A stretch of 64,000 bases of DNA from Gammaproteobacteria bacterium (GCA_024225395.1 JAAEMR010000105.1:5562-69561); one strand, 5' to 3'. Counted from the stretch's first letter, positions 20,691 to 37,475 are shown. The notes: generated by a model from the letters alone, not told the origin. A program made the numbers and translations.

Positions 20691-22118
20691 TTAACCTGAG
20701 TGTTCCAGTGGCTCTGTTTCCATAAAATCTTCGATATCTACTTCTTCATTTTCAGTTCCGCAGGGATCAACCATATTATGTTGCTTGATGATTCGTCGTA
20801 GACGGGGACGGGATATACCAAGAATCTTGCAACTTTCCCCTTTGTGCCAGTTGGTGAAATTTAATACCCTGGCCACATGAATTTTCTCCATTTCTTCCAG
20901 GCTGGTTTGAACGGGTATACCCGGATCACTATTAATGACGTGTTTTTCACTGATAAATTCAGGAATTAAATCCAGTGTTATGGTGTCGGTGGGTGACAGT
21001 GCAACGGCCTTGGTTAAAACATTTTCCAGCTCACGTACATTGCCCGGCCAGCGATAGCCGTTGAATGAATTAATAACTTCCATAGATAAGCGGCACACTG
21101 AATTGGACATTTCCCGGTTAATTCGTCCCAGTAGATTCTGGATCAGGTCCATAAGATCTTCTTTGCGTTCGCGAAGAGGCGGAATGTTAATATTGACGAC
21201 TTGCAGTCTATAAAACAGGTCTTCTCTGAATAAACCCAGTTTTACCTTTTCCTGAAGATCATTATTGGTTGCCGCGATAATACGGGCATTTGATTTGATG
21301 ACATTTGTGCCACCGACTGGAATGTATTCCTTTTCCTGGATTACGCGTAACAATTTTGCCTGTATGGCGGGTGATAGTTCGCCCACTTCATCCAGAAAAA
21401 GTGTGCCATTTTCAGCTATCGAAAACTTGCCCGGGTGTTTGTTGATGGCTCCGGTAAAGGCTCCTTTTTCATGCCCAAATAAATCGGATTCAAGCAAGCT
21501 TTCTACCAGTGCAGCGCAGTTTACCGCAACATAGGGTCCTTCTGAGCGATTGCTGGATTCATGGATTGCCTTGGCGACCAGTTCCTTACCTGTTCCACTT
21601 TCCCCGGTAATCAGTACATTGATCGGTTTGTTTGCGATCAGACCAATGGTTTTATAAATTTCCCGCATGGCTGTGCTGTGACCTGCCATGCGATTATTGT
21701 TTTTCTGGACTTTGTTGCTGTCTTCTTCGGGTATTGAAAGCTTGGTGTTTTCTTCGTTAGATCTGATTAAAGTGCGTTCTACCGCCTGATCCAGTTCGTT
21801 GATATCGACTGGTTTATGAATGTAATCATCTGCACCATTTTGCATGGCGGCAATGGTGGTTTCCATATCATGATAGGCAGTAATCATGATGATGGGTATA
21901 TTAGGAACAACTTCACGAAAATCAGGCAAACTTTCAAGCCCCGATTTAATTGGCATCTGGTTATCGAGTATGATCAGGTCAATTTCATTTGATGCAGCCG
22001 CCAGCAGTCCATCATTCACACTATGGGCTGTGATGACCTGGTGCGACAGACTGGTGTAGTGCAATTGCAAGGTTCGACAAATTGCAATGTCATCATCAAT
22101 AATCAGCAGTGAACTCAT
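20691..22118 (-). CDS. Sigma54-dependent response regulator (NtrC/AtoC family)
   Basis: Receiver domain (IIDDD..LD..), Walker A GESGTGKE, GAFTGA loop, LFLDEVGE, WPGNVRELEN, C-terminal HTH. Confidence 0.92.
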   Translation of the reverse strand: MSSLLIIDDDIAICRTLQLHYTSLSHQVITAHSVNDGLLAAASNEIDLIILDNQMPIKSGLESLPDFREVVPNIPIIMITAYHDMETTIAAMQNGADDYIHKPVDINELDQAVERTLIRSNEENTKLSIPEEDSNKVQKNNNRMAGHSTAMREIYKTIGLIANKPINVLITGESGTGKELVAKAIHESSNRSEGPYVAVNCAALVESLLESDLFGHEKGAFTGAINKHPGKFSIAENGTLFLDEVGELSPAIQAKLLRVIQEKEYIPVGGTNVIKSNARIIAATNNDLQEKVKLGLFREDLFYRLQVVNINIPPLRERKEDLMDLIQNLLGRINREMSNSVCRLSMEVINSFNGYRWPGNVRELENVLTKAVALSPTDTITLDLIPEFISEKHVINSDPGIPVQTSLEEMEKIHVARVLNFTNWHKGESCKILGISRPRLRRIIKQHNMVDPCGTENEEVDIEDFMETEPLEHSG

Positions 22119-22194
22119 AACTTAAATAAATCTCGGTAATGTTGGGCATCTGACAGGCTCCCCTGAATATCATACGCTTTGTTGAGGAAATTAC

Positions 22195-25137
22195 TCATTG
22201 CGCTGGGTCAATATTTAATTTAACAGTAGCTGTAGTTCCGTCGTTTTCTGCTGACTGTAATTGCAGGGTGCCATGTTGTAACTCTATAAATCGTCTGGCG
22301 ATGGCCAGTCCAAGCCCTGTTCCTTTGGCCCGGCTGGTGTAAAACGGTTCGAATAAATCTTCAACTTTATCATTATCAATCCCGCAACCATTATCCTGAA
22401 TAGTTATTTTAATGTAAGAACTGGTTTCAGTGAGGTCTAGCTGAACGGTAAGATTAATAACAGGTGTTACATCCTGCAGCGATTCTACTGATTGCATGGC
22501 ATTGGTCAGTAGATTGGATATGACCTGGCGTAGTTTTCTTGAATCTGCGTTGATAACGGGTAAACCTTTTTCATACCAGGTATTGATTTTAGCCTTAAAT
22601 AAATCAATGTCTTTCTGCACCAGTCCGATACTGTGCTCAACTACTTTCTGGATATCAATCCATTCGAGCTTAATGGCATCGGGTCGAGAATAACTCATTA
22701 AATCTTCCAGAATCTCTTCCATGTACAGCACCTGTTCAAGTGCAATCTGATTCAGTTCAATGGCATCTTCCTGGCTGATTTTATTGGATTGTTTTTGAAA
22801 AATCTGTAATCCCATTTTGATTGAGGAAAGTGGGTTACGTAAATCATGGGCAATCATGTTGGCCATTTTTCCGACCGTATTCAGTGCCTGATTACGACTT
22901 ATTTCATCATTACGTTGTAGCAATTTGTTTTCCAGTTCGATGCGTGCGGTGAGGTCTATAACGGCTGAAATATTTAATTTTCCTTCCAGGGTAGGGGCTG
23001 AGCTATAGCCTATTTCCACCGGAAAAATTTCCCCAGATTTTTTATGTGCCAGGAAGTCCATGCGATTACCTGATGATTTATCAGTTTCTACCAGGGTGGT
23101 AAGTTGCTGGGATATTAATTGTTTCGCTTCGCTTTTTTCAGGGATGACCAGGCTGATGGACTGCCCTACCAGATCCTCTTCTTCATAACCGTACAGGTTC
23201 TGTAAAGTTTCATTGGTGAGTAAAATTTCACCGTTGGAGTCTGTCATGACCATTGCAACGGGTGCCGAGTTAAAACAATGTTTAAAACGTTCTTCAAGCA
23301 TTTTTTGTTCTGTAATATCTTCTTTTACGGCGAGAAAATGGGTGATTTCACCTTCAGGGTTTTTAATGCCTGAAATAGAAGCAGATTCCCAGTACAGTTC
23401 CCCATTCTTTTTTCGATTATGTAAAATACCACGCCAGATTTCACCCTTTTTGACCTTATTCCATAATTGGGAATAATCTTCTTTACTCATTTCACCAGAT
23501 TTCAGAACACTTGGGTTTAACCCTTTAATATCATCCAGTTTGTAACCGGTTAAATGTTCAAACTTTGGGTTGATATATTCAATTTTACCGTATTGATCAG
23601 TTAACATGACAGAAGCCGGGCTCTGCTCAACTGCTTCTGAAAGATGACGAATTTTTATTTCATTCTCACGATATTGAGTGATGTCTTCGCCCATAAAGAT
23701 CAGACCAATCAGGTTGCCCTCGGTATCTGTCATGGATGTATCATGCCAGCGAATCAGGTATTCATTTCCAATTCGATCCTGTAACCAGCTTTCGTGAGTG
23801 GTGGTGCATTTATTATCATCTTTAGATTGCTGGAAAATTTTGCTACAGATATTTTTATAGCGGTTAACCACCAGCGTTTCTATCCAGTTTTTACCGATAA
23901 GCTGAGCTCTATTCCAGCCCAGTAAATTCAACAGAGAATCATTACAGAAGGAAATATTTCCGTCCAGGTCGACGGCTAAAACATTAAGTTCTATCGATTC
24001 GAGCACTTTTCTGAAGTGTTGTTCAAACTCTACCTGTATTTCAGTAATTTGCTGATTGACTCTTAGACGGGCAATAATATGCGTGCCGAGAAGAAACAGT
24101 GCAAAAATAATCAGGTAGAAAAACAGGTTGTTTCTAATAAAAGCTTTAGGCAGGCTATTGAGTTCTTCGGGTGTAATAAGTGCTATCAAATTCCATGGTT
24201 GATTGTAAGTTTTCGGGTTGGACTGACCACTGTTATATTCTTTACTTAAACCGGTTATTTCCAGCCCTGGATATATTGTAGAGTAACTGAATAAGCCATT
24301 TTGAGTTTCAAATTGGCCAGACTGAGAGCTTGATATCTGTTTCCATTCAGTATTGAAATCAGTAGCAAAACTTTGCTCAAGATCAAGCATAAAACCCCAT
24401 TCAAGATTCCGGTTATGATGACTTAACCAGTAACCTTCATGGTTAAGCAGCATTACATTTTTAGAGATATTTGAGGTGGCAGTACGAAAGTTATTGAGTA
24501 ACCGGTTGCCCAGATAATTCAGAATGAGAACTCCGACTTTGATACCTTTTGAATTAAAAACCGGTGTGCCAAATCGAATAACCGGTTTTAACGGTAATTG
24601 TATCTTTCCATGCTCTATGTTCAGGTCAAAGGGTGAAATATAAATTTCATTACGATTAAGTAACAGGCTTTCTATAAAATAGTACCGGCTTTTTTTATTT
24701 TGTAAATTCTCTTTGTCGACTATTGTTGATTTTCCATTCTGATTATTTATTCGAATGACTTCCATGCCATTTATTCCGATTAATCGTATTTGGTCATAGA
24801 TAATTTTTTTATCTGAAAATAACTGGAAGTCATGGGCCATAATTGCCAGAGTTTTGGCATTCAGATTATCAAAGTAGCCATGTAATTCAGCCTGACGCGC
24901 AAGAAAATTGACGTCTGACTGTATATTCGAAAGCTCGGTGACAATGGTTGTTTTACCAAGTTTTAAATTCAATGTCTGCTGGTTATTGCGCTGAGTGCTT
25001 TCTGATGAGATATAAATGTTGTAGTGGATAGTAATGATGGTTATTAATATGACCATACAGATGAGGGCGTACCACAGGCTCTGCTGTAATATTCGCTGAT
25101 TTTTACTCACATTGTGGTCGTGGTTATGGCTAATCAT
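22195..25137 (-). CDS. Membrane sensor histidine kinase (periplasmic Cache-like domain plus three PAS domains)
   Basis: Two TM segments around a periplasmic domain, three PAS/PAC units, AHDLRNPL H-box, NLLTNA, DNGCG, GTGLGL. Confidence 0.9.
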   Translation of the reverse strand: MISHNHDHNVSKNQRILQQSLWYALICMVILITIITIHYNIYISSESTQRNNQQTLNLKLGKTTIVTELSNIQSDVNFLARQAELHGYFDNLNAKTLAIMAHDFQLFSDKKIIYDQIRLIGINGMEVIRINNQNGKSTIVDKENLQNKKSRYYFIESLLLNRNEIYISPFDLNIEHGKIQLPLKPVIRFGTPVFNSKGIKVGVLILNYLGNRLLNNFRTATSNISKNVMLLNHEGYWLSHHNRNLEWGFMLDLEQSFATDFNTEWKQISSSQSGQFETQNGLFSYSTIYPGLEITGLSKEYNSGQSNPKTYNQPWNLIALITPEELNSLPKAFIRNNLFFYLIIFALFLLGTHIIARLRVNQQITEIQVEFEQHFRKVLESIELNVLAVDLDGNISFCNDSLLNLLGWNRAQLIGKNWIETLVVNRYKNICSKIFQQSKDDNKCTTTHESWLQDRIGNEYLIRWHDTSMTDTEGNLIGLIFMGEDITQYRENEIKIRHLSEAVEQSPASVMLTDQYGKIEYINPKFEHLTGYKLDDIKGLNPSVLKSGEMSKEDYSQLWNKVKKGEIWRGILHNRKKNGELYWESASISGIKNPEGEITHFLAVKEDITEQKMLEERFKHCFNSAPVAMVMTDSNGEILLTNETLQNLYGYEEEDLVGQSISLVIPEKSEAKQLISQQLTTLVETDKSSGNRMDFLAHKKSGEIFPVEIGYSSAPTLEGKLNISAVIDLTARIELENKLLQRNDEISRNQALNTVGKMANMIAHDLRNPLSSIKMGLQIFQKQSNKISQEDAIELNQIALEQVLYMEEILEDLMSYSRPDAIKLEWIDIQKVVEHSIGLVQKDIDLFKAKINTWYEKGLPVINADSRKLRQVISNLLTNAMQSVESLQDVTPVINLTVQLDLTETSSYIKITIQDNGCGIDNDKVEDLFEPFYTSRAKGTGLGLAIARRFIELQHGTLQLQSAENDGTTATVKLNIDPAQ

Positions 25138-25145: not shown

Positions 25146-25493
25146 CTAGTTACATTGATTAAGCATGAAATAATTTAAACGACGAAGATAATCCGGCTTA
25201 CTTTCATCCTGATGCATGGGGTTTAGAAATAATAGTTTAGCCGCAATCATCGTTTGTCTTCTTTGCTCGGTATGTATACTGGCTTCGTCATCTAGTAATT
25301 TAGACAGTTGATGTAAAGTTTGTTGCGGATCTTTGCAAAAACGTGGCAGAGTCACATTACTGGCATACCATTGAGCCATCAGCGATACGGATAACAGGGC
25401 GATTAATACAGGCAGTATGACTTTAAGCGGATTAAAGGGAGCTTTAATTAAACCCTGGGTATGATCTTCTGTCTGTAAAGTCGGTTGGTTCAT
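25146..25493 (-). CDS. Hypothetical membrane-anchored protein
   Basis: One TM segment and two Cys; ATGA overlap with hemY; 8 bp before the kinase start. Confidence 0.65.
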   Translation of the reverse strand: MNQPTLQTEDHTQGLIKAPFNPLKVILPVLIALLSVSLMAQWYASNVTLPRFCKDPQQTLHQLSKLLDDEASIHTEQRRQTMIAAKLLFLNPMHQDESKPDYLRRLNYFMLNQCN

Positions 25494-26908
25494 GGCGTGA
25501 CTCGCTGAACATTAATAGAAACAGTGGTTGTTGATTGATGCGAGTGTTGTCTGAGGGTTGAGTAAACCTGATCTGATACTGATTTAGCCTGAATTATTCT
25601 GTCTCGAATTGAAATACCATGAAGGTAATTAGCCACAAAGTGCAGTCCGTTTGATTGATGTGCCCGGTGTTGTATGGCTTTCGTTAAATCTGAATATTTA
25701 CCATGATATAAAGGCAAGCCCTGCTGATGGCGGTTTATCCTGACCATTTCAGGAGATTGCCTGATACCTGTTAATTTCTGTAAAGATGAAAGAGTCTGAT
25801 CGATGAGCACAGCATCTGATTTTTTTAGCGCGTCCATCTGGCAGCCTCCACCCACAAAATTACTGGTGAGTAATTTATTTTCAGGTGCTCGATGTTTGAC
25901 CAGGTTACTCATCCAGAGGCTACCACGCAAGTCCATGTTTTCCCGACTGGGTATCAGGAAGCCATTTCCATCCAGAGATTTATTTAAGCCTGATTTATCA
26001 AAGCCCATGTGAATTTGGGCGATAGGCGCATATTCAATTTTATTGAGTAGTTCGGCAAGTTTTGACTTTACTGGTTGTAGTAAAGCAGCCGCAATGTTGG
26101 CAGGAGTAGAGAATATTAGCTGTTTAGTTAAATATTGATACTCCTGATTATCTGCTTTACTGGTAACTCTCCATCCTGATTTAGTGGGTTCTACGGCCAA
26201 TACCTTTTGCCCGTTGTGAATATCGGTTAACGGGTTTTGAGAAAGAGTCTGAGTTAATGTTTTCATGCCGCCGGAAAAAGAAAATGCTTCCTGTGGTAAT
26301 CCTTTTTTACCCGGTAATAATTTTTTAGCGATAATGCCAGCCGTGAAACTTCCAAAATTTCTTTCCAGAGAAGTCAGTCGGGGCAGGGTACTACGAGCAC
26401 AGGCTTTTTCAGGGTCACAGGCGAGTACCGCAGAAACATAAGGGTCAATTGCCAGATCCAGAATTTCCTGTCCCAGTCGTCGTCTGATAAATTCTGCGAC
26501 CGTCTCATGATCAGTCATGGAGTGAGACCTGAATGGCTCTGACATTAATTTCAGACGGGTTTTAAGTGAAAATAAATCTGAATATAAAATGCCCCTGATG
26601 TTTTCTGGAACCTGCTTAAGTTGATTGTTTTTTAATACGTATCGCCTGGAAATTTTATTACGATTTACCCTGTAATCCTGCAAGCCAGAACGGCTAATAA
26701 ATTGTGTGACCTGTGTATTGAAATTAAGCACCATGGATGCAGCATGATCGGTGACATAGCCGTCCTGCTGTGTCGTGTCGATCAAACCGCCTGTTCTATC
26801 AGATTGTTCGAGAATTGTTGAGCGAATACCTTTTTGTGCTAACCACCAGGCCGAAGCCAAACCTGATACTCCACCACCAATAATCAATACATCGGTATGT
26901 TTGATCAT
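25490..26908 (-). CDS. hemY: HemY-type proto-/coproporphyrinogen oxidase (FAD)
   Basis: GGGVSGL FAD motif, RTGG, ETVAEFIRRRLG, GGMKTL, GNGFLIP, LPLYH. Start at 26908 gives an ATGA overlap with the radical SAM gene stop (ORF track start is 26938). Confidence 0.8.
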   Translation of the reverse strand: MIKHTDVLIIGGGVSGLASAWWLAQKGIRSTILEQSDRTGGLIDTTQQDGYVTDHAASMVLNFNTQVTQFISRSGLQDYRVNRNKISRRYVLKNNQLKQVPENIRGILYSDLFSLKTRLKLMSEPFRSHSMTDHETVAEFIRRRLGQEILDLAIDPYVSAVLACDPEKACARSTLPRLTSLERNFGSFTAGIIAKKLLPGKKGLPQEAFSFSGGMKTLTQTLSQNPLTDIHNGQKVLAVEPTKSGWRVTSKADNQEYQYLTKQLIFSTPANIAAALLQPVKSKLAELLNKIEYAPIAQIHMGFDKSGLNKSLDGNGFLIPSRENMDLRGSLWMSNLVKHRAPENKLLTSNFVGGGCQMDALKKSDAVLIDQTLSSLQKLTGIRQSPEMVRINRHQQGLPLYHGKYSDLTKAIQHRAHQSNGLHFVANYLHGISIRDRIIQAKSVSDQVYSTLRQHSHQSTTTVSINVQRVTP

Positions 26909-28179
26909 GGCTTTTGTCCAGTGTCTGGACGTTTCCACGGCAGTTTATTACCAAAACGTCTGGCTGATAACTGCTGCATATGCTCGACAGTTATTAACTC
27001 TTCACCCAGGTCTAAAACATAACTTTCCGTTCTCTTTTTCACCATATTACGGATGAAGCCGGGAATGCGGTTGAGTTTTTCACTGGCGTCCTGTGACCAG
27101 CTTAAGTTGCTGGTTTCAAATTGAGTGACCGGTTCGATGACCTTGCCATTTTGAGGAATATAACCACAGGAAGCATCTTCATTCATCAATTGTTGACCCG
27201 CTGCCAGGGGTCTTGCGCGACAGCCTCCGCACAGTTTACGAAACTCACATTCTCCACACTTGCCGTTAAGTTGAGGGTTTCTCAGAGATTTAAAATCTTC
27301 TGCAGATTGCCAGATTTGATTTAAGCTCTGTTGTTTAATATTACCGACACTTTTTTCGATGTAAGGGCAGGCGGTAACATCACCTTCCGGGGTTATGCGA
27401 CAATAGTGAGTCCCTGCAATACATCCATCACCTTCCTGCCCGCTGATGCGGTTAAGTGCAGATTCCGGAGCCATCTGCCACGCGATCCTTTTAAAGTAGG
27501 GTGCACAGCGAGGCCGAATAATCAGTTTTTCATATTTTTTCTGACACTCGATTATTTTCTTAATACCTGCTTCGTAATTAACAGCAGAAATATTTCCAAC
27601 AGATTCAGCGCGCCCCGTGCAAATGATGAAAAAGAAATTGATCACTCTGGCCCCTGACATTTCAGCAAAATTAATAATGTCTTCAATTTCGTGATGGTTG
27701 TCGTCGGTAATAGAAAAATGAATTTGAAAATCGAATTGATGTTTTCGGCAATGTTCGATGCCGGTCATGGTCTTTACCCAGCTACCGGTTTGGCCTCTGA
27801 AAGCATCATGAAGAGCAGGATTGAGTGAATCGACGCTAATGCCGATGCCCATAGCACCTGCAGTTTTCAATGATATAACTCGACGTTCAGTCAGTAAAGC
27901 GCCGTTACTACCGATAACAACCATCAGTCCAAGCTCTTTACCATGACTGCAAAGCTCTTCAAGATCGGTTCTGATTAGAGGTTCACCACCGGTTAACACA
28001 ACCATAGCGCCATCATGATCTTGTGCAACTTGATCCAGAAGTGCTTTAACATTCTCTGTCGTTAATTCATTCGGGGAGGGAGTGTTTAATTCATCAGCGT
28101 TCAGGTAACAATGCTCGCAGGCAAGGTTACACCGCCTTGTCAGGTTGATTGCAATAATCTGGAGCTGATGATTATCCAT
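26905..28179 (-). CDS. Radical SAM/SPASM enzyme of the AhbD/AhbC/NirJ-like group with a C-terminal PCP_red (BchB C-terminal-like) domain
   Basis: CNLACEHC, TGGEPL, SPASM cysteines (CIAG...CPY...CGECEFRKLCGGCRAR...C); tail WSQDASEKLNRIPGFIRNMVKKRTE...IT. Confidence 0.8.
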   Translation of the reverse strand: MDNHQLQIIAINLTRRCNLACEHCYLNADELNTPSPNELTTENVKALLDQVAQDHDGAMVVLTGGEPLIRTDLEELCSHGKELGLMVVIGSNGALLTERRVISLKTAGAMGIGISVDSLNPALHDAFRGQTGSWVKTMTGIEHCRKHQFDFQIHFSITDDNHHEIEDIINFAEMSGARVINFFFIICTGRAESVGNISAVNYEAGIKKIIECQKKYEKLIIRPRCAPYFKRIAWQMAPESALNRISGQEGDGCIAGTHYCRITPEGDVTACPYIEKSVGNIKQQSLNQIWQSAEDFKSLRNPQLNGKCGECEFRKLCGGCRARPLAAGQQLMNEDASCGYIPQNGKVIEPVTQFETSNLSWSQDASEKLNRIPGFIRNMVKKRTESYVLDLGEELITVEHMQQLSARRFGNKLPWKRPDTGQKP

Positions 28180-28186
28180 AAGAATA

Positions 28187-28282
28187 TTTATTCACTACAG
28201 AGCACACAGAGACTTAACTGGGTAGTGCATAAAATACTTACATTCTTTAGCTCAGTGTCCCTCTGAGTCCTCTGAGGTGCAA
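28187..28282. repeat. Intergenic inverted-repeat element with 9-nt periodic arms (copy A)
   Basis: TTTATTCACTACAGAGCACACAGAG ... CTCAGTGTCCCTCTGAGTCCTCTGAGGTGCAA; ends nearly identical to those of the element at 30606. Confidence 0.6.
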
Positions 28283-28296
28283 AAGGTTTTTTAATG

Positions 28297-30444
28297 TTAT
28301 GCATTATTCCTCGGATCATCTGGATCGAGGTGGAATTGCTTGCTCTGGCTCCATTTAGATTTAATGGCTTCTACAATTTTCAGAGTGATTTCAGATTTAT
28401 CATTCTGGTTTGCCCAGGTTTCTATTTCATGCACCAGCATGCCTCTGACCATATCCGGTGCACTGGCTATGCTGTCTCTGGCGTCTTGTTGCCAGTCCAG
28501 AGTTTCTACGACTTTTGCAGAGCCTTTGTGGAAAGTTTCCAGGGTGGATTTAACAAATTCCTTATCGATGGAAACTAAACCCATTTTGCCGGCGATAGTT
28601 ATCATCGCATTGGCAGTCATGTCGCGGCAGTAACCTTCAGGTACATTGGCCAGTAATTCTTGACTGCCAGCCAGCCATTCAAGTTTAGTCTCAGGTTTAT
28701 CCTGTTGCAGAGTCATTCCGGCAAAGGGGCATTTACTGGCTTTTTTAGGGGCGGGCTTTTCTCCACTTTTAACCTGTTGTTCCATGGCCTGTCGTGATAT
28801 CTCCAGACCTTTTTCAGCAACTTCGAGAGATATGCTGGAAATGTTGTTATCGGTAGCGTAAGTTTCAATGTTTCTTTTAGCGGCATCTCGCATGAAACCT
28901 TCGGGTGCTCGCATCAAACGAGCTATGGCTGCTGTTTCCCAGCGTAGCTCTTCAGTATCCTGTTGTTGAAGGAAAGCCTGTATATGCTGGATATCGACCT
29001 GCCAGGTTTTATCGGCACGTGCTTTTTTTTCAGCTCGACCTTTTATATTTTCTCGAAGTGAAGGTTCTTCGATGGACTGTAGTAACTGATCAGCCCGGTC
29101 AGTCCAGATCATTGGTTTTGTCGTTACGTATGTTTTCAATTCACCACGGTCGGCTGCTTCGATGATTTCCTGTATGGCATTCTCAGCATGTCCCGGCATT
29201 AGCTCAGCGGTTGCCGCTTCTACAATACTTTCAGTGATGACGGTATGACCTTTTTCCTGTGCGTAACGCAAAATAGCCATTTTGGCCATAGGACGGACGA
29301 AAACCGGTACTTTTAACATGCGTTTTTCTGCTTCGACAGACCAGGATGTGGTGGCTGCAGCAATTCTTTCTATACGAGGCTGGTGTTCCTGCATGCCCAG
29401 TAAGATGGAACAGTTAATATTGCGTAACAGGTTTTCGGCATTGCCCCCTATATCCAGTTCCGGGTCGGCATGAATGCCCAGTTTGCCAATGATTAACAGG
29501 GATGCATCGACGCTGGATACGTATTTTTCAATAGCATCGTAGGCTTTTCCGTCGAGCAATTTTGTTTCTATGTTGATGCCATAGTCTTCGGCTATGGATT
29601 CGGCCACGTCAAGATGCCCCTGGTAAATTTTAGCAAGACCCGAATCGATAATATCTTCGTGTAATTTTTCCTGCTCTTTAAATTTGAAAACTTTACCGGC
29701 TTCTTCTGATAAAACATCGGCAATTTTATTAAAAGCGACATAGTGATAATAAGGATCAAAGGTTGAGATAACCTTGAGTTCTACTTCCCATTGATGGGAT
29801 AGTGAAAAAGCAGTGAGAAGAGCGCCATAAGATTTTCTGGAACCGTCGATGGCCACAACGATGGGGCCTTTGTTAATCATTTTTTGAGGTTGTTTGATAA
29901 CCAGGGTATCAATATTAGTTCGACGTACAGTTCGGTCACAAACAGTTCCTATACGGCTGCCTTCTATAGCACCGACACCGATGGAACCCAGGACCAGTAA
30001 GTCATAATCACTTTTGTTGGCTTCATTCACCAGAGCGCGGTAATTCTTACCTTCGAGTGAGGAGCGCTGAAATTCAATTTTTTCCTGCTGGCATTGTTTG
30101 TCAATTTGATCGAGATAAGACTCTGTAATAATCGACAGGCCTCGAGTGATCAAATCATCATGCACTTCGCGTTGATGTTCGAGCTCCTGTTCAACCCGAT
30201 ATTGTTCGGGTAAACCACCTTCCATCTGGCGGAAGCGGATATCATGCATTTTGGCGGCGTAGGCATGAGTACCTGTTATTTTACTGCCCCAGGCTTTAGC
30301 CAGTTGGACAGATTCTAAAATTGCCTGGTTTGAATGATCGGATGAATCCACTGCCACCAGAATAGACCGGTACCGGGTTAAAGGGTCGAGAGATTCATTT
30401 GTTTGTGGAGCAATAGCCGTCATAGGTGCTTTTATCCAGTTCAA
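28297..30444 (-). CDS. Tandem universal-stress-protein (USP) domains followed by five PCP_red-like repeats
   Basis: ILVAVDSS and IVVAIDGS USP starts with G..G..G motifs; five W...A...L...P...R......E..A......IT-type repeats; a KCPF motif; probable start ATG at 30423. Confidence 0.8.
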   Translation of the reverse strand: MNWIKAPMTAIAPQTNESLDPLTRYRSILVAVDSSDHSNQAILESVQLAKAWGSKITGTHAYAAKMHDIRFRQMEGGLPEQYRVEQELEHQREVHDDLITRGLSIITESYLDQIDKQCQQEKIEFQRSSLEGKNYRALVNEANKSDYDLLVLGSIGVGAIEGSRIGTVCDRTVRRTNIDTLVIKQPQKMINKGPIVVAIDGSRKSYGALLTAFSLSHQWEVELKVISTFDPYYHYVAFNKIADVLSEEAGKVFKFKEQEKLHEDIIDSGLAKIYQGHLDVAESIAEDYGINIETKLLDGKAYDAIEKYVSSVDASLLIIGKLGIHADPELDIGGNAENLLRNINCSILLGMQEHQPRIERIAAATTSWSVEAEKRMLKVPVFVRPMAKMAILRYAQEKGHTVITESIVEAATAELMPGHAENAIQEIIEAADRGELKTYVTTKPMIWTDRADQLLQSIEEPSLRENIKGRAEKKARADKTWQVDIQHIQAFLQQQDTEELRWETAAIARLMRAPEGFMRDAAKRNIETYATDNNISSISLEVAEKGLEISRQAMEQQVKSGEKPAPKKASKCPFAGMTLQQDKPETKLEWLAGSQELLANVPEGYCRDMTANAMITIAGKMGLVSIDKEFVKSTLETFHKGSAKVVETLDWQQDARDSIASAPDMVRGMLVHEIETWANQNDKSEITLKIVEAIKSKWSQSKQFHLDPDDPRNNA

Positions 30445-30472
30445 GAAATGTGTTATTGATTAAACCAGGCTA

Positions 30473-30601
30473 TTAACCAAATAAAACCCAGTATCCAAAA
30501 AGATAGCTAATTACCAGAATATTAATTGCTGCACCGGCAAAAACGAAATAATCAAAACCTGTCAGGTTCTGGTACCATTTATTTGTTACTACTGTTTTCA
30601 T
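30473..30601 (-). CDS. Small single-pass membrane protein, 42 aa (not in the ORF track)
   Basis: MKTVVTNKWYQNLTGFDYFVFAGAAINILVISYLFGYWVLFG; co-oriented within the operon and fills the gap before the USP gene. Confidence 0.6.
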   Translation of the reverse strand: MKTVVTNKWYQNLTGFDYFVFAGAAINILVISYLFGYWVLFG

Positions 30602-30605
30602 ATTT

Positions 30606-30735
30606 TTTATTCACCACAGAGGACACGGAGGACATAGAAATTATCAGGCTAGAGCTATTCTCAAGCTAGAGCTATTCTCAAGGAGCCTGTATCAACAGGT
30701 TTACCTCTGTGCTCTCTATGACCTCTGTGGTGCAA
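30606..30735. repeat. Intergenic inverted-repeat element with 9-nt periodic arms (copy B), containing a 17-bp tandem duplication
   Basis: TTTATTCACCACAGAGGACACGGAGGACATAG ... CTCTGTGCTCTCTATGACCTCTGTGGTGCAA; GCTAGAGCTATTCTCAA twice at 30648-30681. Confidence 0.65.
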
Positions 30736-30740
30736 TGTCT

Positions 30741-31490
30741 TTATTTTTTCTTAAACATGAAATCGACGGTTTGAGTATCTCCACCGGCTAAGGTTGCTTT
30801 ACCTTTTTGAGTTCCCAGAGTTCCGTGGAAAGCCCTTACTTTATATTTTCCGGCTGGAATATTGTCGATAGTATAGGTACCGTCTTCGGCAACTTTTGCG
30901 TAGTAAGGATTTTTAGCGACAAACACAAAACCATGCATGAAGTCATGAGCGTCACATTCGATCTTCATGCCTACACCACGCTTGAGTTTGATCTTTTTAT
31001 TGATGGTGCCTTTATCAGGTTGACTGATGTTCATCACGGTCTTTTTTGCTCTACCGATAATTTCGTAACTGTGGATGTTATGTAATACAGGGTCATCGTT
31101 AATGATTTCAGCATTGCCTTCGTTGTGCATGATTTGCATATAAGGCATGAATTCACAGCCTTTCTGTAAAATTTTAGAGTCTTTATTTGTGTCGTCAAAT
31201 GCCTTGCCCTGTTTTACTTTGTCCAGGTAAACCACAACCTCTGTCAGTGCGTCACCGTTAACTCTGACGTAATCAATTTCGCGGTTACCGACTCCGCATA
31301 CATCATTATCTTTTGAAATCTTGAAGACCAGCGGAGAGGGGTCTTTACCGGTAAATGAAACCTTACCGGAGATACTTCCCCCATTGGCAACATCAACTGT
31401 TTTATATTTTGCAGCCATGATTGCCGGGCTAGCACTTATGGCCAGAGTCAGGCCTGCAATTATTGATAGTTTTTTAAACATATATTTCAC
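30741..31490 (-). CDS. Exported cupredoxin-like / carboxypeptidase-regulatory-like domain protein
   Basis: Signal peptide, GSISGKV, CEFMP, DPVLHNIH ... CDAHDFM (H..CxxHxxM, type-1-copper-like), NPYYA..EDGTYTIDNIPAGKY. Confidence 0.75.
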   Translation of the reverse strand: MKYMFKKLSIIAGLTLAISASPAIMAAKYKTVDVANGGSISGKVSFTGKDPSPLVFKISKDNDVCGVGNREIDYVRVNGDALTEVVVYLDKVKQGKAFDDTNKDSKILQKGCEFMPYMQIMHNEGNAEIINDDPVLHNIHSYEIIGRAKKTVMNISQPDKGTINKKIKLKRGVGMKIECDAHDFMHGFVFVAKNPYYAKVAEDGTYTIDNIPAGKYKVRAFHGTLGTQKGKATLAGGDTQTVDFMFKKK

Positions 31491-31512
31491 CTTAGGATTT
31501 TCATTTATAGTT

Positions 31513-33897
31513 TTATGATACTTCCGCTAATGGAGCTGTACGGTACATTTCTTCAAGCATTTCAATAGCAAATCGTCTTTCATAACTTGTGGGCAGGTCT
31601 GACAGTAATTCAACAAGCCTTGCTGTACCCTGAACAGGTTCTATCGCTTTCAATACGAGTGCCATATCACGAGTTCTTCCACCAGCATTTTTGAATGGAC
31701 TTTGCACAATTTGTTCGATGGCTTTTGCCATTAACTCCTGTTGCTGATTAATTTCTTCCACCATCAGGCAGCGTTTCAGATTACTTACAGCGCTATAACG
31801 AACACCGGCTTCCTTGTCCTGCAGCATGTCGATTAATAAATTCACCCAGTCAGTCAGGGTGATGGGCGTTTCGGGTATGTGGGCGTTTTTAAGCAGTTCG
31901 TCACCATTTAATTCAAGTTCGGTGATGGATTCAATAGCCTGGATACGCAAAGCAGCACGTCTATGTTCTAAAGCCGTCATTAAAATTGGGATGGCAGCAC
32001 GATTATGAATGGCACCAAGGGCCTTGATACAAGCTAGTTTCAAGTCCCACTGTTCATTATGGAACTGGGTAATCAAACCGCCATAGGCGTATTCAATGCC
32101 ACCGATCGTTGGGTTATTCCTGGCTATTTCGGAGATTGAGTCGGCAGCATAAGTACTGAGTTTTATATCTGCTGAATGTAACGCCGTTATCAAGCTATCA
32201 ATCGTTTTCTTTGCTTTCTCTTCTGACAACTGTTCAGGCAGTTTAGCCAGTATTCTGGCAGCCAGATGTTGAACATCCTGGGCCACGGAAATTTCTTCAT
32301 TTTTGTTTTTAAATAACCACTCACCTTTGGTGACGTTATCCTGCACCAGGTTATGAAACTCTTCCATATCAGGGTCCTGTTCGGTTTCACTGTCGTGCTG
32401 ATTATCCGCTTGTTGCAGTTTTTGCTCGACAACAAGGCTATCCTGCATGATAGATTCCAGTGTGGACAAAACTTCTGCAGGCTGGGCTTCTTCGATGGGC
32501 TCTTCCTCGATCTCTTCGGTGATATTTTCAGCTTGCTTGGGCACTAATGATGCAACTTCAATTTCAAGTACCACGCGGCCATTGAGTGTTTCGTTGATGA
32601 TATCCAGCGGTGTTTTTACCTGGGAAGAATCAAATTCTGCCTGATCGATATTTTTCTCAATAGTCATCAAAGCCTGCATGGTAATCAGCCTGATGGGTTG
32701 GTCATTATGGTTGATCAAACGTGTCATTATTCTGGAGATATTGACATTCCATCTGGATATCTGAGCCAGTGTATCGATACAGGTCCTAAGAATTTTATCA
32801 GCAAGTTTGGGTCTTGAAATGAGTTGAATTAAACGAGCTTCAGAGGCTTCCTTATCCGCCAACTTCAGCAATAAGGGTATGGCGGCCAGGATAACAATCT
32901 CATTTTTATCATTAAAGGCTGTGGAAATATGCTCCAGTAACTGTTCATCGCTGAGGTTTACATTTTCTGCCTGTAGAGATTGTAAATAGGTTGCTCTGAC
33001 TTCTGCATCCGGATCATTCAGTAAATGATCATTTGCTTTGTGTTTCGGATTTTTAGAATTAATACCGGCACTGAGTGTGTCATAAGCAGTGATGGCTGCC
33101 TGGCGTACTTTTTCAGAGCGATCCTTTTTTAATAATTCAATGGCTGACAGGTACTTTGTTGCATTTCGACTCACTAATGCCTGTAATGCGTTTAAACGAA
33201 CATCATCTGAGGAATCTGTAAAAGCGGAAGTTAACGCCTTCAGTGATTGTTTTGTGGATGAAAAAGATAACGCATGTGCAGATCTTCTACGGGTAAGAGC
33301 AGATGCATCTTTCAACAGTCCAATCACGCGTTCTTCACCTTCATTGCCGATGGATACCAGGGCATCAAGAATGACATGTTCAATGTCGAGAACATCTTCA
33401 CTATCCAGTAAATTCATTAATACCTGTGTCGCTGGTTGGGCTTTCATTTTTCCCAGTGCAACGATTGCCTCCTTCTGCATGTCCCACCAGTCATCCCAGT
33501 CTTCATTACTATCAATGATCATATTTTGCGGATGATGTTCAGCTATTTCCAGTAAGACTGGAATGCTGGATGGATTTTTAATATCACCCAGTGCTCTTAC
33601 GATGGCTGTTTTTAATTCGCCGTCGGGGTCATTTTTTAATGATTCGATCAATTGAGGTACAACCTTGGTAGCATTCAATTTTCCTAATGCTTCGGCGGCA
33701 TCGATACAAACGTCGATATCTTCATCTCGAAGTTTTATGACCAGATCATTAATGGCCTCAGTAGCACCTATAGTGCCTAATGCCCGACTGGCATTACATT
33801 TATCAACCTCATCACCACTATTCAATAAACCGCGCAGGCTATGCACAACGTTAGTTCTGGGCTCAGTTGAAGGTTTGTCTGTATTTGTTGATAGCAC
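31513..33897 (-). CDS. HEAT/PBS-lyase repeat protein
   Basis: Many D..VR..A..ALG repeats. GTG at 33897 with an AAGGT RBS is preferred because the ORF-track TTG at 33948 lies inside the sigma54 promoter. Confidence 0.8.
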   Translation of the reverse strand: MLSTNTDKPSTEPRTNVVHSLRGLLNSGDEVDKCNASRALGTIGATEAINDLVIKLRDEDIDVCIDAAEALGKLNATKVVPQLIESLKNDPDGELKTAIVRALGDIKNPSSIPVLLEIAEHHPQNMIIDSNEDWDDWWDMQKEAIVALGKMKAQPATQVLMNLLDSEDVLDIEHVILDALVSIGNEGEERVIGLLKDASALTRRRSAHALSFSSTKQSLKALTSAFTDSSDDVRLNALQALVSRNATKYLSAIELLKKDRSEKVRQAAITAYDTLSAGINSKNPKHKANDHLLNDPDAEVRATYLQSLQAENVNLSDEQLLEHISTAFNDKNEIVILAAIPLLLKLADKEASEARLIQLISRPKLADKILRTCIDTLAQISRWNVNISRIMTRLINHNDQPIRLITMQALMTIEKNIDQAEFDSSQVKTPLDIINETLNGRVVLEIEVASLVPKQAENITEEIEEEPIEEAQPAEVLSTLESIMQDSLVVEQKLQQADNQHDSETEQDPDMEEFHNLVQDNVTKGEWLFKNKNEEISVAQDVQHLAARILAKLPEQLSEEKAKKTIDSLITALHSADIKLSTYAADSISEIARNNPTIGGIEYAYGGLITQFHNEQWDLKLACIKALGAIHNRAAIPILMTALEHRRAALRIQAIESITELELNGDELLKNAHIPETPITLTDWVNLLIDMLQDKEAGVRYSAVSNLKRCLMVEEINQQQELMAKAIEQIVQSPFKNAGGRTRDMALVLKAIEPVQGTARLVELLSDLPTSYERRFAIEMLEEMYRTAPLAEVS

Positions 33898-33931
33898 AAT
33901 GTAATACCTTATGTAGATTTCCAGCTTGTTA

Positions 33932-33948
33932 TGCATGAATAGTGCCAA
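33932..33948 (-). promoter_or_regulatory. Sigma54 (-24/-12) promoter for the leftward HEAT...hemY...NtrC arm
   Basis: Minus strand TTGGCACTATTCATGCA = GG-N10-GC with a TGGCAC core. Confidence 0.75.
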
Positions 33949-34282: not shown

Positions 34283-34299
34283 TTGGCAGGAAAATTGCA
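34283..34299 (+). promoter_or_regulatory. Sigma54 (-24/-12) promoter for the rightward cydA-like arm
   Basis: TTGGCAGGAAAATTGCA = GG-N10-GC with TTGCA; about 34 bp before the first small ORF. Confidence 0.75.
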
Positions 34300-34332: not shown

Positions 34333-34494
34333 ATGTCTGATAAAGAGAACGAAGCACAACAAGATGCAATGGAATCAGCACACGATGAGTCAACCACCTG
34401 GGGACCGAAACTATTTTACGGCGTATTAATTGCCGTTTTAGTCTTTTTCTGGTGGATGGTTATTTATCCTCATGGCGTAGCGCCTACTCATTAA
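34333..34494 (+). CDS. Small single-pass membrane protein, 53 aa (not in the ORF track)
   Basis: AGGA RBS; MSDKENEAQQDAMESAHDESTTWGPKLFYGVLIAVLVFFWWMVIYPHGVAPTH. Confidence 0.7.
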   Translation: MSDKENEAQQDAMESAHDESTTWGPKLFYGVLIAVLVFFWWMVIYPHGVAPTH

Positions 34495-34560
34495 ACTCGT
34501 CAGAAATACAGATTAACGACATTATTTCGCGTGAATGGGGAAACCTTAAGGTAACAAAAT

Positions 34561-34695
34561 ATGAATATGAAGAATCCACTGATTAACTGGGTACTTGCTA
34601 TTGTGATAGTCGTAGCGATTTTTTACGGGCTTAACCACGGGGTGATGTCGATGCAGGGTTTGCCATTAAACATAGATTTAACGCCAGCTCAATAA
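34561..34695 (+). CDS. Small single-pass membrane protein, 44 aa (not in the ORF track)
   Basis: AAGGT RBS; MNMKNPLINWVLAIVIVVAIFYGLNHGVMSMQGLPLNIDLTPAQ. Confidence 0.65.
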   Translation: MNMKNPLINWVLAIVIVVAIFYGLNHGVMSMQGLPLNIDLTPAQ

Positions 34696-34716
34696 GTGCT
34701 CACTGAAGGTATTATT

Positions 34717-36603
34717 ATGAATCCAGGTTTATCAATTAATAACAATTTCAGGGTTGTTCTTAGTTTACTTTTTGCCTTGATGCTGGCGACAGTGTTTTCC
34801 CTGTCATTTTCGGACAGTGTTTATGCTGCAACTGGAACATCCAGTATTGAGGACAGGATTCGCTCGGTGGATACCGGTGGCCTGACAGCTGAACAATTTC
34901 AGGTCGAACCGAAAGAAGTCGGCTTTCCTCCTTTTTCAGCACCAAAATTAAAAACTAAAGATTATCCCAAGATTATGGGTGTGAGCAGTCGTTCGATTGT
35001 CTGGGTAGTTGCCCAGATGCATCTGTTTTTTGCAGCCTTTGTTCTGGCCGTTCCATTGTTTGTGCTGGTTATCGAATGGATTGGGGTTAAGTCCGGCGAT
35101 GAACGTTATGACGACATGGCGCATGAGTGTATGAAAATCAGTATGACTGCCTTTTCCATTACAGCTATTTTTGGTGGTTTACTGGCGTTTGCGTTATTCA
35201 TTTTATATCCACAGTTTATGGGTTACATGATGAATGTGTTTAACACCCAGGTGCTGCTGTATGCGCTGTTATTTTTTGCAGAAAGCTTTTTTCTGTATCT
35301 CTATTACTACAGCTGGTATGCCTACCGTTGGGGTAATAAGAAATGGGTACACCTGACTTTAGGTCTTATGCTCAATGTGGTTGGAACGACTATCCTTTTA
35401 CTGGCAAATGCCTGGGTCACTTTCATGATGGCACCTTCCGGTGTGGATGATACTGGAGCTGTTACCGGTGGAATCTGGGAAATCATCCGTGGCCCTTTAT
35501 GGAACCCTATTAACTTACACCGCTTCATCGCCAACATTGCTTTTGGTGGAGCTGTTATTGGTGCTTATGCGGCCTATAAATTTCTGTCGGCTACCGACTT
35601 AAGAGCCAGGGCACATTACGACTGGATGGGTTACACCGCTAATTTTATCGCGATTCTGGCATTCTTACCGTTGCCGTTTGCAGGTTACTGGTTGATGGCT
35701 GAAATCTATGCCTATTCTCAGCAAATGGGCATTACCGCGATGGGTGGAATTCTGGCCTGGCTGTTTATTGTTCAGGCCGTGTTGATTGGTACCATTTTAC
35801 TGGCGGGTAATTATTATTTGTGGTCCGGTATGTCGCGGACTCAAGGTTCATCACGATATACCTGGATGATTAAATATATTGCGATGGTGCTGGTGACCTG
35901 TTTCCTGATCTGGGTAACACCCCATACGTTAATTTTAAGTGCTTCAGAGATGAAGTTGCTGGGCGGTAGTCATCATCATTTACTTGGGCCTCTGGGCATC
36001 ATGCCGGCCAAGAATATCGCAGTAAATCTGATGCTGATCTTTACCTTCCTGTCTTTTCAGTTATATAGACGATCGGATAAAGAGGTCACTGTTGGCTGGG
36101 CAGGCTTTGGTAATGCGTTGATGGTTAGTATTTATGTGGTCGCCATTGTTAACGTAATTTTTGCTGGAGTGTATTACGGCTATTTTACCAATACTGTTTA
36201 TAAAGTAGGTTCCAGTGTGACTCAGGTGGTTTCAACGCTGGTGGTTATTGTTTCCGGTGTCATCATCGATACCTATATGTTTAAAGGTGCGAAAACATTG
36301 CCATCGGAATGGGGAAAAGTTTCTAACCGGGCACAATATGCCTTGTTTGCATTACCCGTCGCATTTACCTGGTTGATGGCGTTGATGGGTTATGTTCGTT
36401 CATCGGTCAGAACCAACTGGCATGTGTACACGGTGATGAAAGATAACTCGCCGGATAATTATATTCCTGCCATTGGATTTGCCGGAAACATGATGACGAT
36501 TGTGACTGTATTATTCCTGATCTGTGTGTTATTTATTTTCTGGGTAGCGTCTTTGAGTGAGACAAAACAGTCCAGACCCGCTTTTCTGACGGGAGATAAA
36601 TAA
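34717..36603 (+). CDS. Cytochrome bd subunit I (CydA)-like protein, divergent bd-like type with no CydB partner
   Basis: AQMHLFF (His19-like), FFAES, ANAW..FM..P, NLHRF (His186-like), GYVRSSVRTNW in place of GW..AE.GRQPW; many TM helices; ATG at 34717 with AAGGT RBS. Confidence 0.75.
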   Translation: MNPGLSINNNFRVVLSLLFALMLATVFSLSFSDSVYAATGTSSIEDRIRSVDTGGLTAEQFQVEPKEVGFPPFSAPKLKTKDYPKIMGVSSRSIVWVVAQMHLFFAAFVLAVPLFVLVIEWIGVKSGDERYDDMAHECMKISMTAFSITAIFGGLLAFALFILYPQFMGYMMNVFNTQVLLYALLFFAESFFLYLYYYSWYAYRWGNKKWVHLTLGLMLNVVGTTILLLANAWVTFMMAPSGVDDTGAVTGGIWEIIRGPLWNPINLHRFIANIAFGGAVIGAYAAYKFLSATDLRARAHYDWMGYTANFIAILAFLPLPFAGYWLMAEIYAYSQQMGITAMGGILAWLFIVQAVLIGTILLAGNYYLWSGMSRTQGSSRYTWMIKYIAMVLVTCFLIWVTPHTLILSASEMKLLGGSHHHLLGPLGIMPAKNIAVNLMLIFTFLSFQLYRRSDKEVTVGWAGFGNALMVSIYVVAIVNVIFAGVYYGYFTNTVYKVGSSVTQVVSTLVVIVSGVIIDTYMFKGAKTLPSEWGKVSNRAQYALFALPVAFTWLMALMGYVRSSVRTNWHVYTVMKDNSPDNYIPAIGFAGNMMTIVTVLFLICVLFIFWVASLSETKQSRPAFLTGDK

Positions 36604-37475
36604 TGAATTTACCTGTCAGAAAGTTACGTAAAACTCAATCCGGTACGGTTTTATTTAATATTTTACTATTCAGTTTTTCTTTAACTCTGGTGTTTACACT
36701 GGTAGCTAATTTATTACCCCAGGTGGAAGGCGAAGCACCGCTAGAAGTGGAAATTGATTTGAGCGCGATGACGATGGATAGTTTTGTTTCCCTGGGAGAA
36801 AACATCTTTTCCGGTAAAGGCACCTGCACACTGTGTCATAACAACATGGGACGTGCACCGGATATTTTACAGCTCAGTATGGTGGAAACCGCGAAACAAC
36901 GGTTGGCAGATGAACGTTATAAAGGTGTTGCCACAACAGTTGAAGATTATTTTCGTGAATCGATGGTAGACCCGAGTCTTTACGTGGTTGCAGGTTTTGG
37001 CCAGAAAGGTAGCAACGATACAGTTTCGCCCATGCCTGTTGCTAATAAAGCACCCATTTTATTAACAGATATTGAAATGGATGCAGTGATTGCATTTATG
37101 CAGGCTAAAGATGGAAATGATGTCACCGTTTCTCTACCGGAAGGATTACCTGAAACTGTGGCAGAAGAGCAGGGTGGAGCTACCGCCGTGGCAGCTGTAC
37201 AGGGACCGGCTGAAACAGCAGAACAAGCGTTGGCTAAATTTACCTGCACCGCCTGTCATGCTGTTGCGGGCAGTGAATCGATGGTAGGACCTGAGTTGAA
37301 CACAGTCGGTAGTCGACTGGACAAAGATCAAATTCGCGAGAGTATTTTGAACCCTGAAGCTGTCATTACCGAGGGCTTTGATGGTGGCATGATGCCAGCC
37401 GATTTTGCAAAGAAAATGACCATCAGTGAGTTGGACATGGTGACTGAGTACTTACTCAAACAGGGAGGACAGTAA
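36603..37475 (+). CDS. Membrane-anchored dihaem cytochrome c
   Basis: N-terminal TM; CTLCH and CTACH; YFRES..DP and IRESILNP motifs with downstream MP; 1-bp overlap with the cydA-like gene. Confidence 0.85.
   Translation: MNLPVRKLRKTQSGTVLFNILLFSFSLTLVFTLVANLLPQVEGEAPLEVEIDLSAMTMDSFVSLGENIFSGKGTCTLCHNNMGRAPDILQLSMVETAKQRLADERYKGVATTVEDYFRESMVDPSLYVVAGFGQKGSNDTVSPMPVANKAPILLTDIEMDAVIAFMQAKDGNDVTVSLPEGLPETVAEEQGGATAVAAVQGPAETAEQALAKFTCTACHAVAGSESMVGPELNTVGSRLDKDQIRESILNPEAVITEGFDGGMMPADFAKKMTISELDMVTEYLLKQGGQ

Follow-up and report, generated by a model that had tools for sequence, protein, structure and literature searches.

The 64,000-nucleotide stretch analyzed here (the window; Gammaproteobacteria bacterium, GCA_024225395.1 JAAEMR010000105.1:5562-69561) carries on its minus strand six closely spaced genes, called as open reading frames, that encode in order a HEAT-repeat protein, a secreted protein, a universal stress protein (USP), a radical SAM enzyme, a HemY-type oxidase and a 115-residue protein. 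The USP gene (28297-30444, TTG start) specifies a 715-residue tandem-USP protein with five PCP_red repeats. It is followed by an AhbD/NirJ2-like radical SAM/SPASM enzyme of 424 residues that ends in a sixth PCP_red copy (26905-28179), and by a HemY-type porphyrinogen oxidase of 482 residues that belongs to the flavin adenine dinucleotide-dependent enzymes (25490-26938) and whose gene shares its first 34 bases with the radical SAM gene. On the plus strand, reading divergently and away from this string, Pfam recognizes a bd-like oxidase subunit (635 residues), a cytochrome c (290 residues) and a fusion of cytochrome c with an EB_dh haem-b domain (800 residues), together spanning 34696-39880. The gene set is widespread and unstudied, and it probably makes or delivers the haem of an unusual respiratory oxidase.

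An initial annotation, made from the window's sequence, had described two USP domains followed by five PCP_red repeats and a KCPF motif, a further PCP_red copy at the end of the adjacent radical SAM gene, and a resemblance of all these repeats to the C-terminal domain of BchB/ChlB; it proposed a search with hidden Markov models of Usp and PCP_red (PF08369). Both families are matched, and the described architecture holds up in Pfam and hhalign. Scanned whole, the USP protein gives Usp at 109.5 bits in two stretches and PCP_red at 118.5 bits in three, and the radical SAM protein gives PCP_red at 51.3 bits (residues 361-403). When each copy is scanned singly, four of the six exceed the PF08369 gathering cut-off of 32.5 bits: R1 (29209-29343, residues 368-412; 55.9 bits), R3 (28807-28941, residues 502-546; 37.2 bits), R5 (28360-28494, residues 651-695; 33.1 bits) and the radical SAM tail (26965-27099, residues 361-405; 56.5 bits), all on the minus strand like the remaining two. 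R2 (28972-29106, residues 447-491) is divergent and stays under the cut-off at 20.9 bits (E = 3.7e-4), and R4 (28543-28677, residues 590-634) has no Pfam match. A profile iterated on the family nonetheless detected both while they were still outside it, R4 with 31.9 bits and R2 with 17.1 bits. Run on blocks cut from the alignments of the USP (63 sequences) and radical SAM (67 sequences) families, hhalign puts all 15 pairs of the six copies in register, at probabilities that range from 81.6% (R1-R2) to 99.4% (R3-R4); R2 matches the others at 81.6-98.2%, R4 at 97.2-99.4%, and the radical SAM tail matches R1-R5 at 98.2-99.0%. Judged by these profiles, R2 and R4 are true PCP_red copies, Pfam notwithstanding. 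R1 is the best conserved, with a mean identity of 77% to the window copy over 62 relatives and invariant residues W368, P380 and G399-H400-T401-V402-I403 in the 63 sequences. Past R5 lies a conserved tail in which W698, F704 and H705 are invariant.

AlphaFold2 models give all six copies the same strand-helix-helix-strand-helix pattern; the match lists of whole-model fold searches are taken up by the USP and radical SAM domains. The sequence relationship to solved structures is direct. The stand-alone PCP_red domain 2KRU, which like 2L09 was determined by nuclear magnetic resonance, is matched at E = 2e-4 and, by the radical SAM tail in phmmer, at 7.9e-6. The BchB/ChlB model TIGR01278 is matched at 69.3 bits against a cut-off of 490, at model positions 456-510 of 512 only, and the C-termini of the corresponding crystallized chains are hit at residues 458-502 (2XDQ_B) and 473-518 (3AEK_B). 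A protein atlas look-up of R1 returned PCP_red clusters only, at a score of 0.81 that lies under the level that counts. The six copies, each of about 45 residues, are thus homologous to the BchB/ChlB C-terminus of dark-operative protochlorophyllide oxidoreductase (DPOR), to 2KRU and to 2L09, but here the domain occurs in arrays of up to five copies and is fused to USP or radical SAM domains, in the absence of DPOR and of a full-length TIGR01278 match. In the 98.85%-complete genome, PF00148 (BchN/B, NifD/K) finds no match and PF08369 matches are confined to the USP and radical SAM genes. The statement in the initial annotation that photosynthesis genes are lacking therefore stands for the DPOR genes, which is what these two scans cover. 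In BchB itself, PCP_red presumably covers the substrate pocket in trans. The accessible portions of the DPOR literature yielded no statement on the role of the BchB PCP_red or C-terminal domain, and a literature search found nothing on PCP_red/PF08369 outside DPOR.

The Cys-Pro-Phe motif (residues 572-574, 28723-28731 on the minus strand; the KCPF of residues 571-574) lies in the linker between R3 and R4. The surrounding segment 564-585 has predicted local distance difference test (pLDDT) values below 50 and is predicted to be disordered; C572, P573 and F574 are at least 90% conserved in the 63 sequences, with variable flanks. Among USP relatives, 115 of 116 five-repeat proteins carry CP[FLVIM] after R3, at a median of 20 residues ahead of R4; in proteins taken from the genome loci the motif is present in 27/34 with five repeats and 12/19 with three (the sets of 116, 34 and 19 proteins overlap in part). 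The three-repeat USP proteins of Gallionellaceae end a few residues past the motif. A separate family of about 165 residues (606 matches at E <= 0.001, annotated as 'hypothetical' or as 'PCP reductase family protein') has an N-terminal CxxC...CxxC zinc ribbon in 118 of 122 members, and in 114 of 122 a CPF or CPL at a median of 21 residues ahead of its single PCP_red. The recurrence of the same arrangement, CPF, about 20 residues and PCP_red, in two unrelated architectures is the strongest sign that the cysteine works with the domain, and it bears out the significance attached to the motif when it was first described. The radical SAM enzyme tails contain no CP motif of this kind. A haem-regulatory motif is a Cys-Pro with a hydrophobic residue after it, set in a flexible region, and the element described here has that composition, a predicted-disordered setting and strong conservation. 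It differs from them in its relatives: in Nitrospirota and Methylomirabilota homologues a four-cysteine, rubredoxin-like insert occupies the site, and the motif aligns with its second knuckle, CPVC. That alignment suggests a second reading of the motif, and haem binding by the cysteine is putative.

The first 360 residues of the USP protein fold as a tandem USP. Domain 1 (29893-30372, residues 25-184, minus strand) is a Pfam stretch and contains G153-x2-G156-x9-G166-T167, of which G153, G156 and G166 are invariant in the 63 sequences. The USP ATP-binding motif is G-x2-G-x9-G-(S/T), so this domain has it, and ATP binding is predicted. Domain 2 (29395-29868, about residues 193-350, minus strand), the second Usp stretch, is modeled with its own strands and helices and carries a conserved variant of the glycine motif, G320-x2-G323-x9-G333-G334; its invariant residues are G320, G323, H325, D327, D331, G333 and N335. 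Foldseek places the model closest to ATP-bound TTHA0350 (3AB8, E = 2.9e-13, target TM score 0.79), followed by Rv2623 and UspE. With a pLDDT of 79.1 and a predicted template modeling score (pTM) of 0.55, the model defines the individual domains well but not how they are placed relative to one another. The helical inserts of both USP domains hold dozens of residues that are invariant across 63 sequences reaching Nitrospirota and Zetaproteobacteria, among them H60, H67, D68, R70 and F71 in one and D230-P231-Y232 and H234-N239 in the other. Because of this constraint, fixed partners or a ligand site fit better than a loose stress regulator. The protein shares with TTHA0350, Rv2623 and UspE its two USP domains, their fold and the glycine motif of domain 1; unlike them it has a 355-residue C-terminal PCP_red array, unusually conserved inserts and fixed genomic partners.

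For the radical SAM protein, Pfam reports Radical_SAM at 91 bits and SPASM at 46.9 bits. The NCBIfam models for NirJ2 (TIGR04055, 305.9 bits) and AhbD (TIGR04545, 281.7 bits) match over the full length, both under their 500-bit equivalog cut-offs; NirJ (158.8 bits), AhbC (155.7 bits) and NirJ1 reach about half that level and are likewise under theirs. The CX3CX2C cysteines (C17, C21, C24) and C253, C271, C308, C311, C317, C320 and C338 are invariant in 67 sequences. By sequence the enzyme is nearest to AhbD/NirJ2, and coproheme decarboxylation is a putative activity. Its AlphaFold2 model is confident (pLDDT 88.1, pTM 0.88). The best structural matches are peptide-modifying SPASM enzymes (SuiB, Z = 26.6; PqqE, Z = 26.4; SkfB, Z = 25.9), a ranking that cannot decide the enzyme class because no AhbD, AhbC or NirJ structure is among the matches. 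The likeness to AhbD/NirJ2 comprises the full-length model match, CX3CX2C, the full SPASM cysteine set and the neighboring HemY. The differences are the C-terminal PCP_red (one copy here, three in most relatives), scores far under 500 bits and the genomic setting, which is apart from AhbA, AhbB and AhbC and is that of an accessory gene in a proteobacterium with the protoporphyrin pathway. The available text of a 2026 Chem Rev review reports AhbD in coproporphyrin-pathway organisms that have no other Ahb enzymes, where it stands in for ChdC; to that extent an AhbD-type enzyme beside HemY is not without precedent. The 2204 relatives are named 'radical SAM protein' or, in one source, 'AdoMet-dependent heme synthase'. 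A complex prediction of the enzyme with USP residues 1-425, which excludes the C-terminal repeats, scored 0.01 and 0.00 against a mark of 0.32 and is evidence neither for nor against a contact.

Most proteobacterial relatives of the radical SAM enzyme (e.g. L011:10350-12380 and L023:9752-11890) are 670-715 residues long and have three recognized PCP_red copies. About 75 unassigned residues lie between their copies 2 and 3 and about 85 after copy 3; these stretches may hide further degenerate copies.

HemY passes its family model by a wide margin (TIGR00562, 257.9 bits against 97.85). Its relatives of known structure are the Myxococcus protoporphyrinogen oxidase 2IVD (186.8 bits), 1SEZ (165.5 bits) and 3I6D (149.2 bits), which puts it somewhat nearer the Myxococcus enzyme than the Bacillus one and does not decide between protoporphyrinogen and coproporphyrinogen as its substrate. 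Away from this locus the genome holds HemF, HemN, HemJ and two ferrochelatases, and on a separate contig NirJ (629.9 bits) with haem d1 genes. ChdC/HemQ was not found in the genome. Because HemF, HemN, HemJ, ferrochelatase and the d1-type NirJ lie elsewhere, the set is accessory and not housekeeping. The ferrochelatases have 321 and 378 residues (C69:35646-36611 and C157:7066-8202); the longer of the two types is shared with three more genomes of the genus and is not distributed along with the USP set. Across the order, ferrochelatase is found in 56 of 59 genomes; a true second copy was seen in two of the 11 genomes with the USP gene and in two of the 48 without it. The C157 enzyme was considered as the partner of a coproporphyrin-type branch and rejected, as it does not track with the set in the order and its neighbors are uninformative.

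The haem d1 set (C149:64000-77376, L094) looks complete, comprising NirJ, siroheme decarboxylase-like NirD/L/G/H and a uroporphyrinogen methyltransferase. Beside it is a 937-residue NapC/NirT-type cytochrome fusion that ends in a haem-b segment of the dimethyl sulfoxide reductase type.

Of 7999 candidates scored, 2678 are relatives of the USP protein at E <= 0.001. Usp and PCP_red occur together in each of the best 120, which, where named, are called only 'universal stress protein'; identity is 56-60% over the whole length across proteobacterial classes. Repeat numbers vary: USP proteins have one, two, three or five copies and the radical SAM enzyme one or three, in the combinations (USP + radical SAM) 5+3 at 19 loci, 3+3 at 10, 5+1 at 8, 1+1 at 5 and 3+1 at 3; the few others come mostly from loci cut at contig ends. 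Neighborhoods were compared at 80 loci from named genomes, with denominators counting the loci that have enough flank (at least 7 kb for the bd-like gene). In 44/71 loci the gene immediately downstream of USP encodes the radical SAM enzyme, HemY is present in 36/53 and the bd-like gene in 34/62, and the HEAT and secreted protein genes are upstream in 26/52 and 27/52. The USP-radical SAM pair, usually with HemY, is kept from Gammaproteobacteria to Rhodothermaceae. The trio of bd-like subunit, cytochrome c and EB_dh protein adjoins it in Gammaproteobacteria, Gallionellaceae, an alphaproteobacterium and Rhodothermaceae. At Methylomirabilota and Rhodothermaceae loci, the USP gene stands among haem-copper oxidase genes (COX1, COX3, DUF420).

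Within the class the gene is rare, occurring in 2 of 121 evenly sampled genomes, this one included; since that sample is too sparse, the order was used for co-occurrence. There, 11 of 59 genomes have the USP gene. The bd-like gene is present in 10 and HemY, above its cut-off, in 8, all of them USP-positive, and in one genome the USP and bd-like genes are each present twice. The USP-positive genomes in which HemY (three) or the bd-like gene (one) was not found show partial USP matches only.

The bd-like subunit matches Cyt_bd_oxida_I at 72.5 bits over residues 98-352 only, and its partners are the Cytochrom_C and EB_dh proteins. The available part of a preprint by Murali et al. describes an OR-N group with CydA-like first helices, no quinol site, about 14 helices and other electron-donor partners. 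The protein appears to fit that group by description, as distinct from placement in a tree. The preprint mentions neither 'radical SAM' nor 'universal stress', and a literature search found no paper on this gene set. Sources available in part propose functions and cofactors for bd-like oxidases that are not established.

We consider it most plausible, at a probability of about 45%, that the set carries out accessory haem processing and hand-off for the neighboring bd-like oxidase/cytochrome cluster, with PCP_red and the Cys-Pro motif as the tetrapyrrole-holding part. The tetrapyrrole theme of the initial annotation gains from the nearness of the radical SAM enzyme to AhbD/NirJ2, the passing HemY match and the company of a haem-rich oxidase cluster, and its remark that no characterized example was known agrees with our literature search. 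Docking of the radical SAM enzyme on the USP protein and gating by nucleotides, which it also proposed, are putative. Beyond it, the comparison brings out the variable repeat numbers, an accessory island tied to the bd-like oxidase and a full haem pathway in the same genome. On the favored reading, the radical SAM/SPASM enzyme, as a sister of the coproheme decarboxylase AhbD, would most likely cut or alter the propionate side chains of haem or a precursor, and the HemY-type flavoenzyme would oxidize the ring of a neighboring intermediate. PCP_red would hold or cap the tetrapyrrole: the single copy on the enzyme could act as a substrate cap, and the five copies on the predicted ATP-binding tandem-USP protein, if the two proteins meet, as a carrier, buffer or gate. 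The cysteine of Cys-Pro-Phe, in its flexible linker, may supply a thiolate ligand to the iron. Three routes can be envisaged. Coproporphyrinogen might pass through HemY, ferrochelatase and the radical SAM enzyme to protohaem; the radical SAM enzyme might serve as a coproporphyrinogen decarboxylase ahead of HemY; or the pair might tailor finished haem.

Several observations weigh against this proposal. Tetrapyrrole binding by PCP_red is putative, the DPOR literature consulted gave no role for the domain in BchB, and the radical SAM enzyme scores below the AhbD and NirJ2 equivalog cut-offs, so its family does not fix its substrate. At 27 of 71 loci the radical SAM gene is not directly downstream, and many USP genes of Nitrospirota, Nitrospinota, Methylomirabilota and deltaproteobacteria have no such enzyme nearby. 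The mismatched copy numbers argue against a one-to-one pairing of the repeats on the two proteins. A coproporphyrin-type branch would need the housekeeping ferrochelatase, because the second copy does not track the set. The counts within the order come from close kin sharing one island and show common inheritance more than independent association; the linkage across phyla is the independent part of the evidence. Finally, at two loci the USP gene has neighbors of the Mrp/NUBPL type that point to iron-sulfur handling.

A bolder form of the same proposal, possible though doubtful in our estimate, is that the AhbD-like enzyme and HemY make a modified haem used only by the bd-like (OR-N-type) oxidase, and that the PCP_red/Cys-Pro arrays are haem carriers of a new class, keeping hold of the reactive intermediates and loading the product. 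The genes for haem o and haem a tailoring, ctaA and ctaB, travel with haem-copper oxidases, and the present set is analogous in that cofactor-processing genes accompany a terminal oxidase cluster. Here, by comparison, the enzyme families are unrelated to those of ctaA/ctaB, the oxidase is bd-like, and no modified haem is known for it. Were the idea correct, the set would be the counterpart of the synthases of haem o and haem a, and the occurrence of PCP_red on BchB would be accounted for by a general role of the module in holding tetrapyrroles.

The two Mrp/NUBPL loci suggest a different role for the domain, as an adaptor for iron-sulfur supply or for docking a P-loop ATPase, with the CPF cysteine taking part in cluster or sulfur transfer and with no binding of tetrapyrroles. 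In Methylomirabilota (L065:10095-11767) and Rhodothermaceae (L083:10006-11436) the USP gene is followed by a Mrp/NUBPL-type P-loop ATPase (ParA, 245 and 235 bits) and then by a small zinc-ribbon-CPF-PCP_red protein. The four-cysteine rubredoxin-like insert of Nitrospirota and Methylomirabilota sits exactly at the CPF site, and both known enzyme carriers of PCP_red, BchB and the radical SAM enzyme, hold [4Fe-4S] clusters. The DPOR ATPase BchL binds BchB through salt bridges, according to the accessible part of the source, but this contact is not tied to the PCP_red portion of BchB. We judge the iron-sulfur role unlikely, since neither the string in the window nor most proteobacterial loci include a Mrp/NUBPL gene, one cysteine is too few to hold a cluster, and HemY, with which the set travels, is without a link to iron-sulfur chemistry.

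We think it equally unlikely that the set is a conditional back-up for ordinary haem b, that is, alternative late steps induced together with the oxidase (either an AhbD-like decarboxylase working in a coproporphyrin-type route or an additional coproporphyrinogen/protoporphyrinogen step), with the USP as a stress-type regulator and PCP_red as an oligomerization module. HemY and the radical SAM enzyme could catalyze adjacent steps, and the replacement of ChdC by AhbD in coproporphyrin-pathway organisms, as given in the available text of the 2026 Chem Rev review, offers a model for such a route. The string ends in its own sensor kinase and sigma-54-type regulator, with sigma-54-like sites in the divergent promoter region, and in Nitrospira marina USPs beside respiratory operons rise at low oxygen, these being general USPs not shown to be of this family. 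However, such steps would be redundant with the HemF, HemN, HemJ and ferrochelatase already in the genome, a plain regulator is not expected to keep 56-60% whole-length identity and dozens of invariant residues across classes, and the recurrence of CPF-PCP_red in another family is left unexplained.

That the radical SAM/SPASM enzyme is instead a peptide maturase, with the PCP_red copies as peptide-recognition or substrate modules, would suit its top structural matches (SuiB, PqqE and SkfB) but is very improbable, because that fold ranking does not separate the classes, the sequence models favor AhbD/NirJ2 over every peptide maturase by a clear margin, neither the window nor the other loci show a conserved short precursor gene next to the enzyme, and HemY is its constant neighbor.

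According to the accessible parts of the sources, bd-like oxidases are common in sulfur-, iron-, nitrite- and manganese-oxidizing bacteria, and the gene set offers a direct handle on their function and cofactors. Knowing what the radical SAM enzyme and HemY make together would tell whether these oxidases need a haem of their own, and work on the set would yield a first function for PCP_red and for a 700-residue 'universal stress protein'.

Upstream of the USP gene on the minus strand are the HEAT-repeat protein (31513-33948, 811 residues; HEAT_2 at 155.1 bits and HEAT_PBS at 61.1 bits) and the secreted protein (30741-31490, 249 residues), for which CarboxypepD_reg reaches 27.3 bits and is under its cut-off. 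The HEAT protein occurs only in gammaproteobacterial versions of the cluster and has sub-threshold matches to HEAT proteins of the bilin-lyase type, namely NblB (78 bits against 300), CpcE and CpcF. In the secreted protein, H137, H140, C179, H182, M185 and H186 are kept in at least 90% of 31 homologues. Its H...C-x2-H-x2-M pattern is reminiscent of a type-1 copper site, which would make it a candidate site of that kind; no sequence relative was found in the PDB. The 115-residue protein that is kept after HemY (25146-25493, minus strand) has one hydrophobic stretch and no Pfam family match, and tblastn finds it at the equivalent position in related loci.

The string closes with a sensor kinase (980 residues) and a sigma-54-type response regulator (475 residues; 20691-22118), together at 20691-25137 on the minus strand, open reading frames labeled by reading their sequences alone and syntenic in Sedimenticola, Thiodiazotropha and Piscirickettsiaceae loci. 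The 750-base divergent region contains two sigma-54-like elements, TGGCAC-N5-ATGCA at 33932-33947 (-) and TGGCAG-N5-TTGCA at 34284-34299 (+), each on the strand of its own operon. They are two of the four sites in the window with at most one mismatch; the consensus as such is not enriched over the window (47 matches against 38.7 +/- 5.9 expected). Taken as motif matches, the two sites fit the regulator at 20691-22118. Because the minus-strand site falls inside the longest HEAT reading frame, translation of that gene probably begins farther downstream than this frame does. An Rfam search of the window gave no match.

Elsewhere in the window are RuBisCO with CbbQ, subunits of a 2-oxoacid:ferredoxin oxidoreductase and multihaem cytochromes, which mark the organism as a lithotroph that fixes CO2. 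Among named relatives, those closest at the locus are uncultured Gammaproteobacteria and Beggiatoa-type bacteria. Of the sampled words, a share of 0.07 is present in one marine metatranscriptome, from which three contigs of at least 99% identity align to 28598-28893, 30472-31574 and 32160-32407; parts of the USP and HEAT genes are among the stretches covered, and one contig bridges the HEAT and secreted-protein genes. As contigs of an RNA library that possibly includes DNA, they are a weak hint of expression, and the uncovered parts are uninformative. Between the plus-strand sigma-54-like site and the bd-like oxidase gene, the region 34334-34695 holds two short reading frames on the plus strand, with starts at 34334 and 34561. 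Both contain a hydrophobic segment, and they may encode small oxidase subunits.

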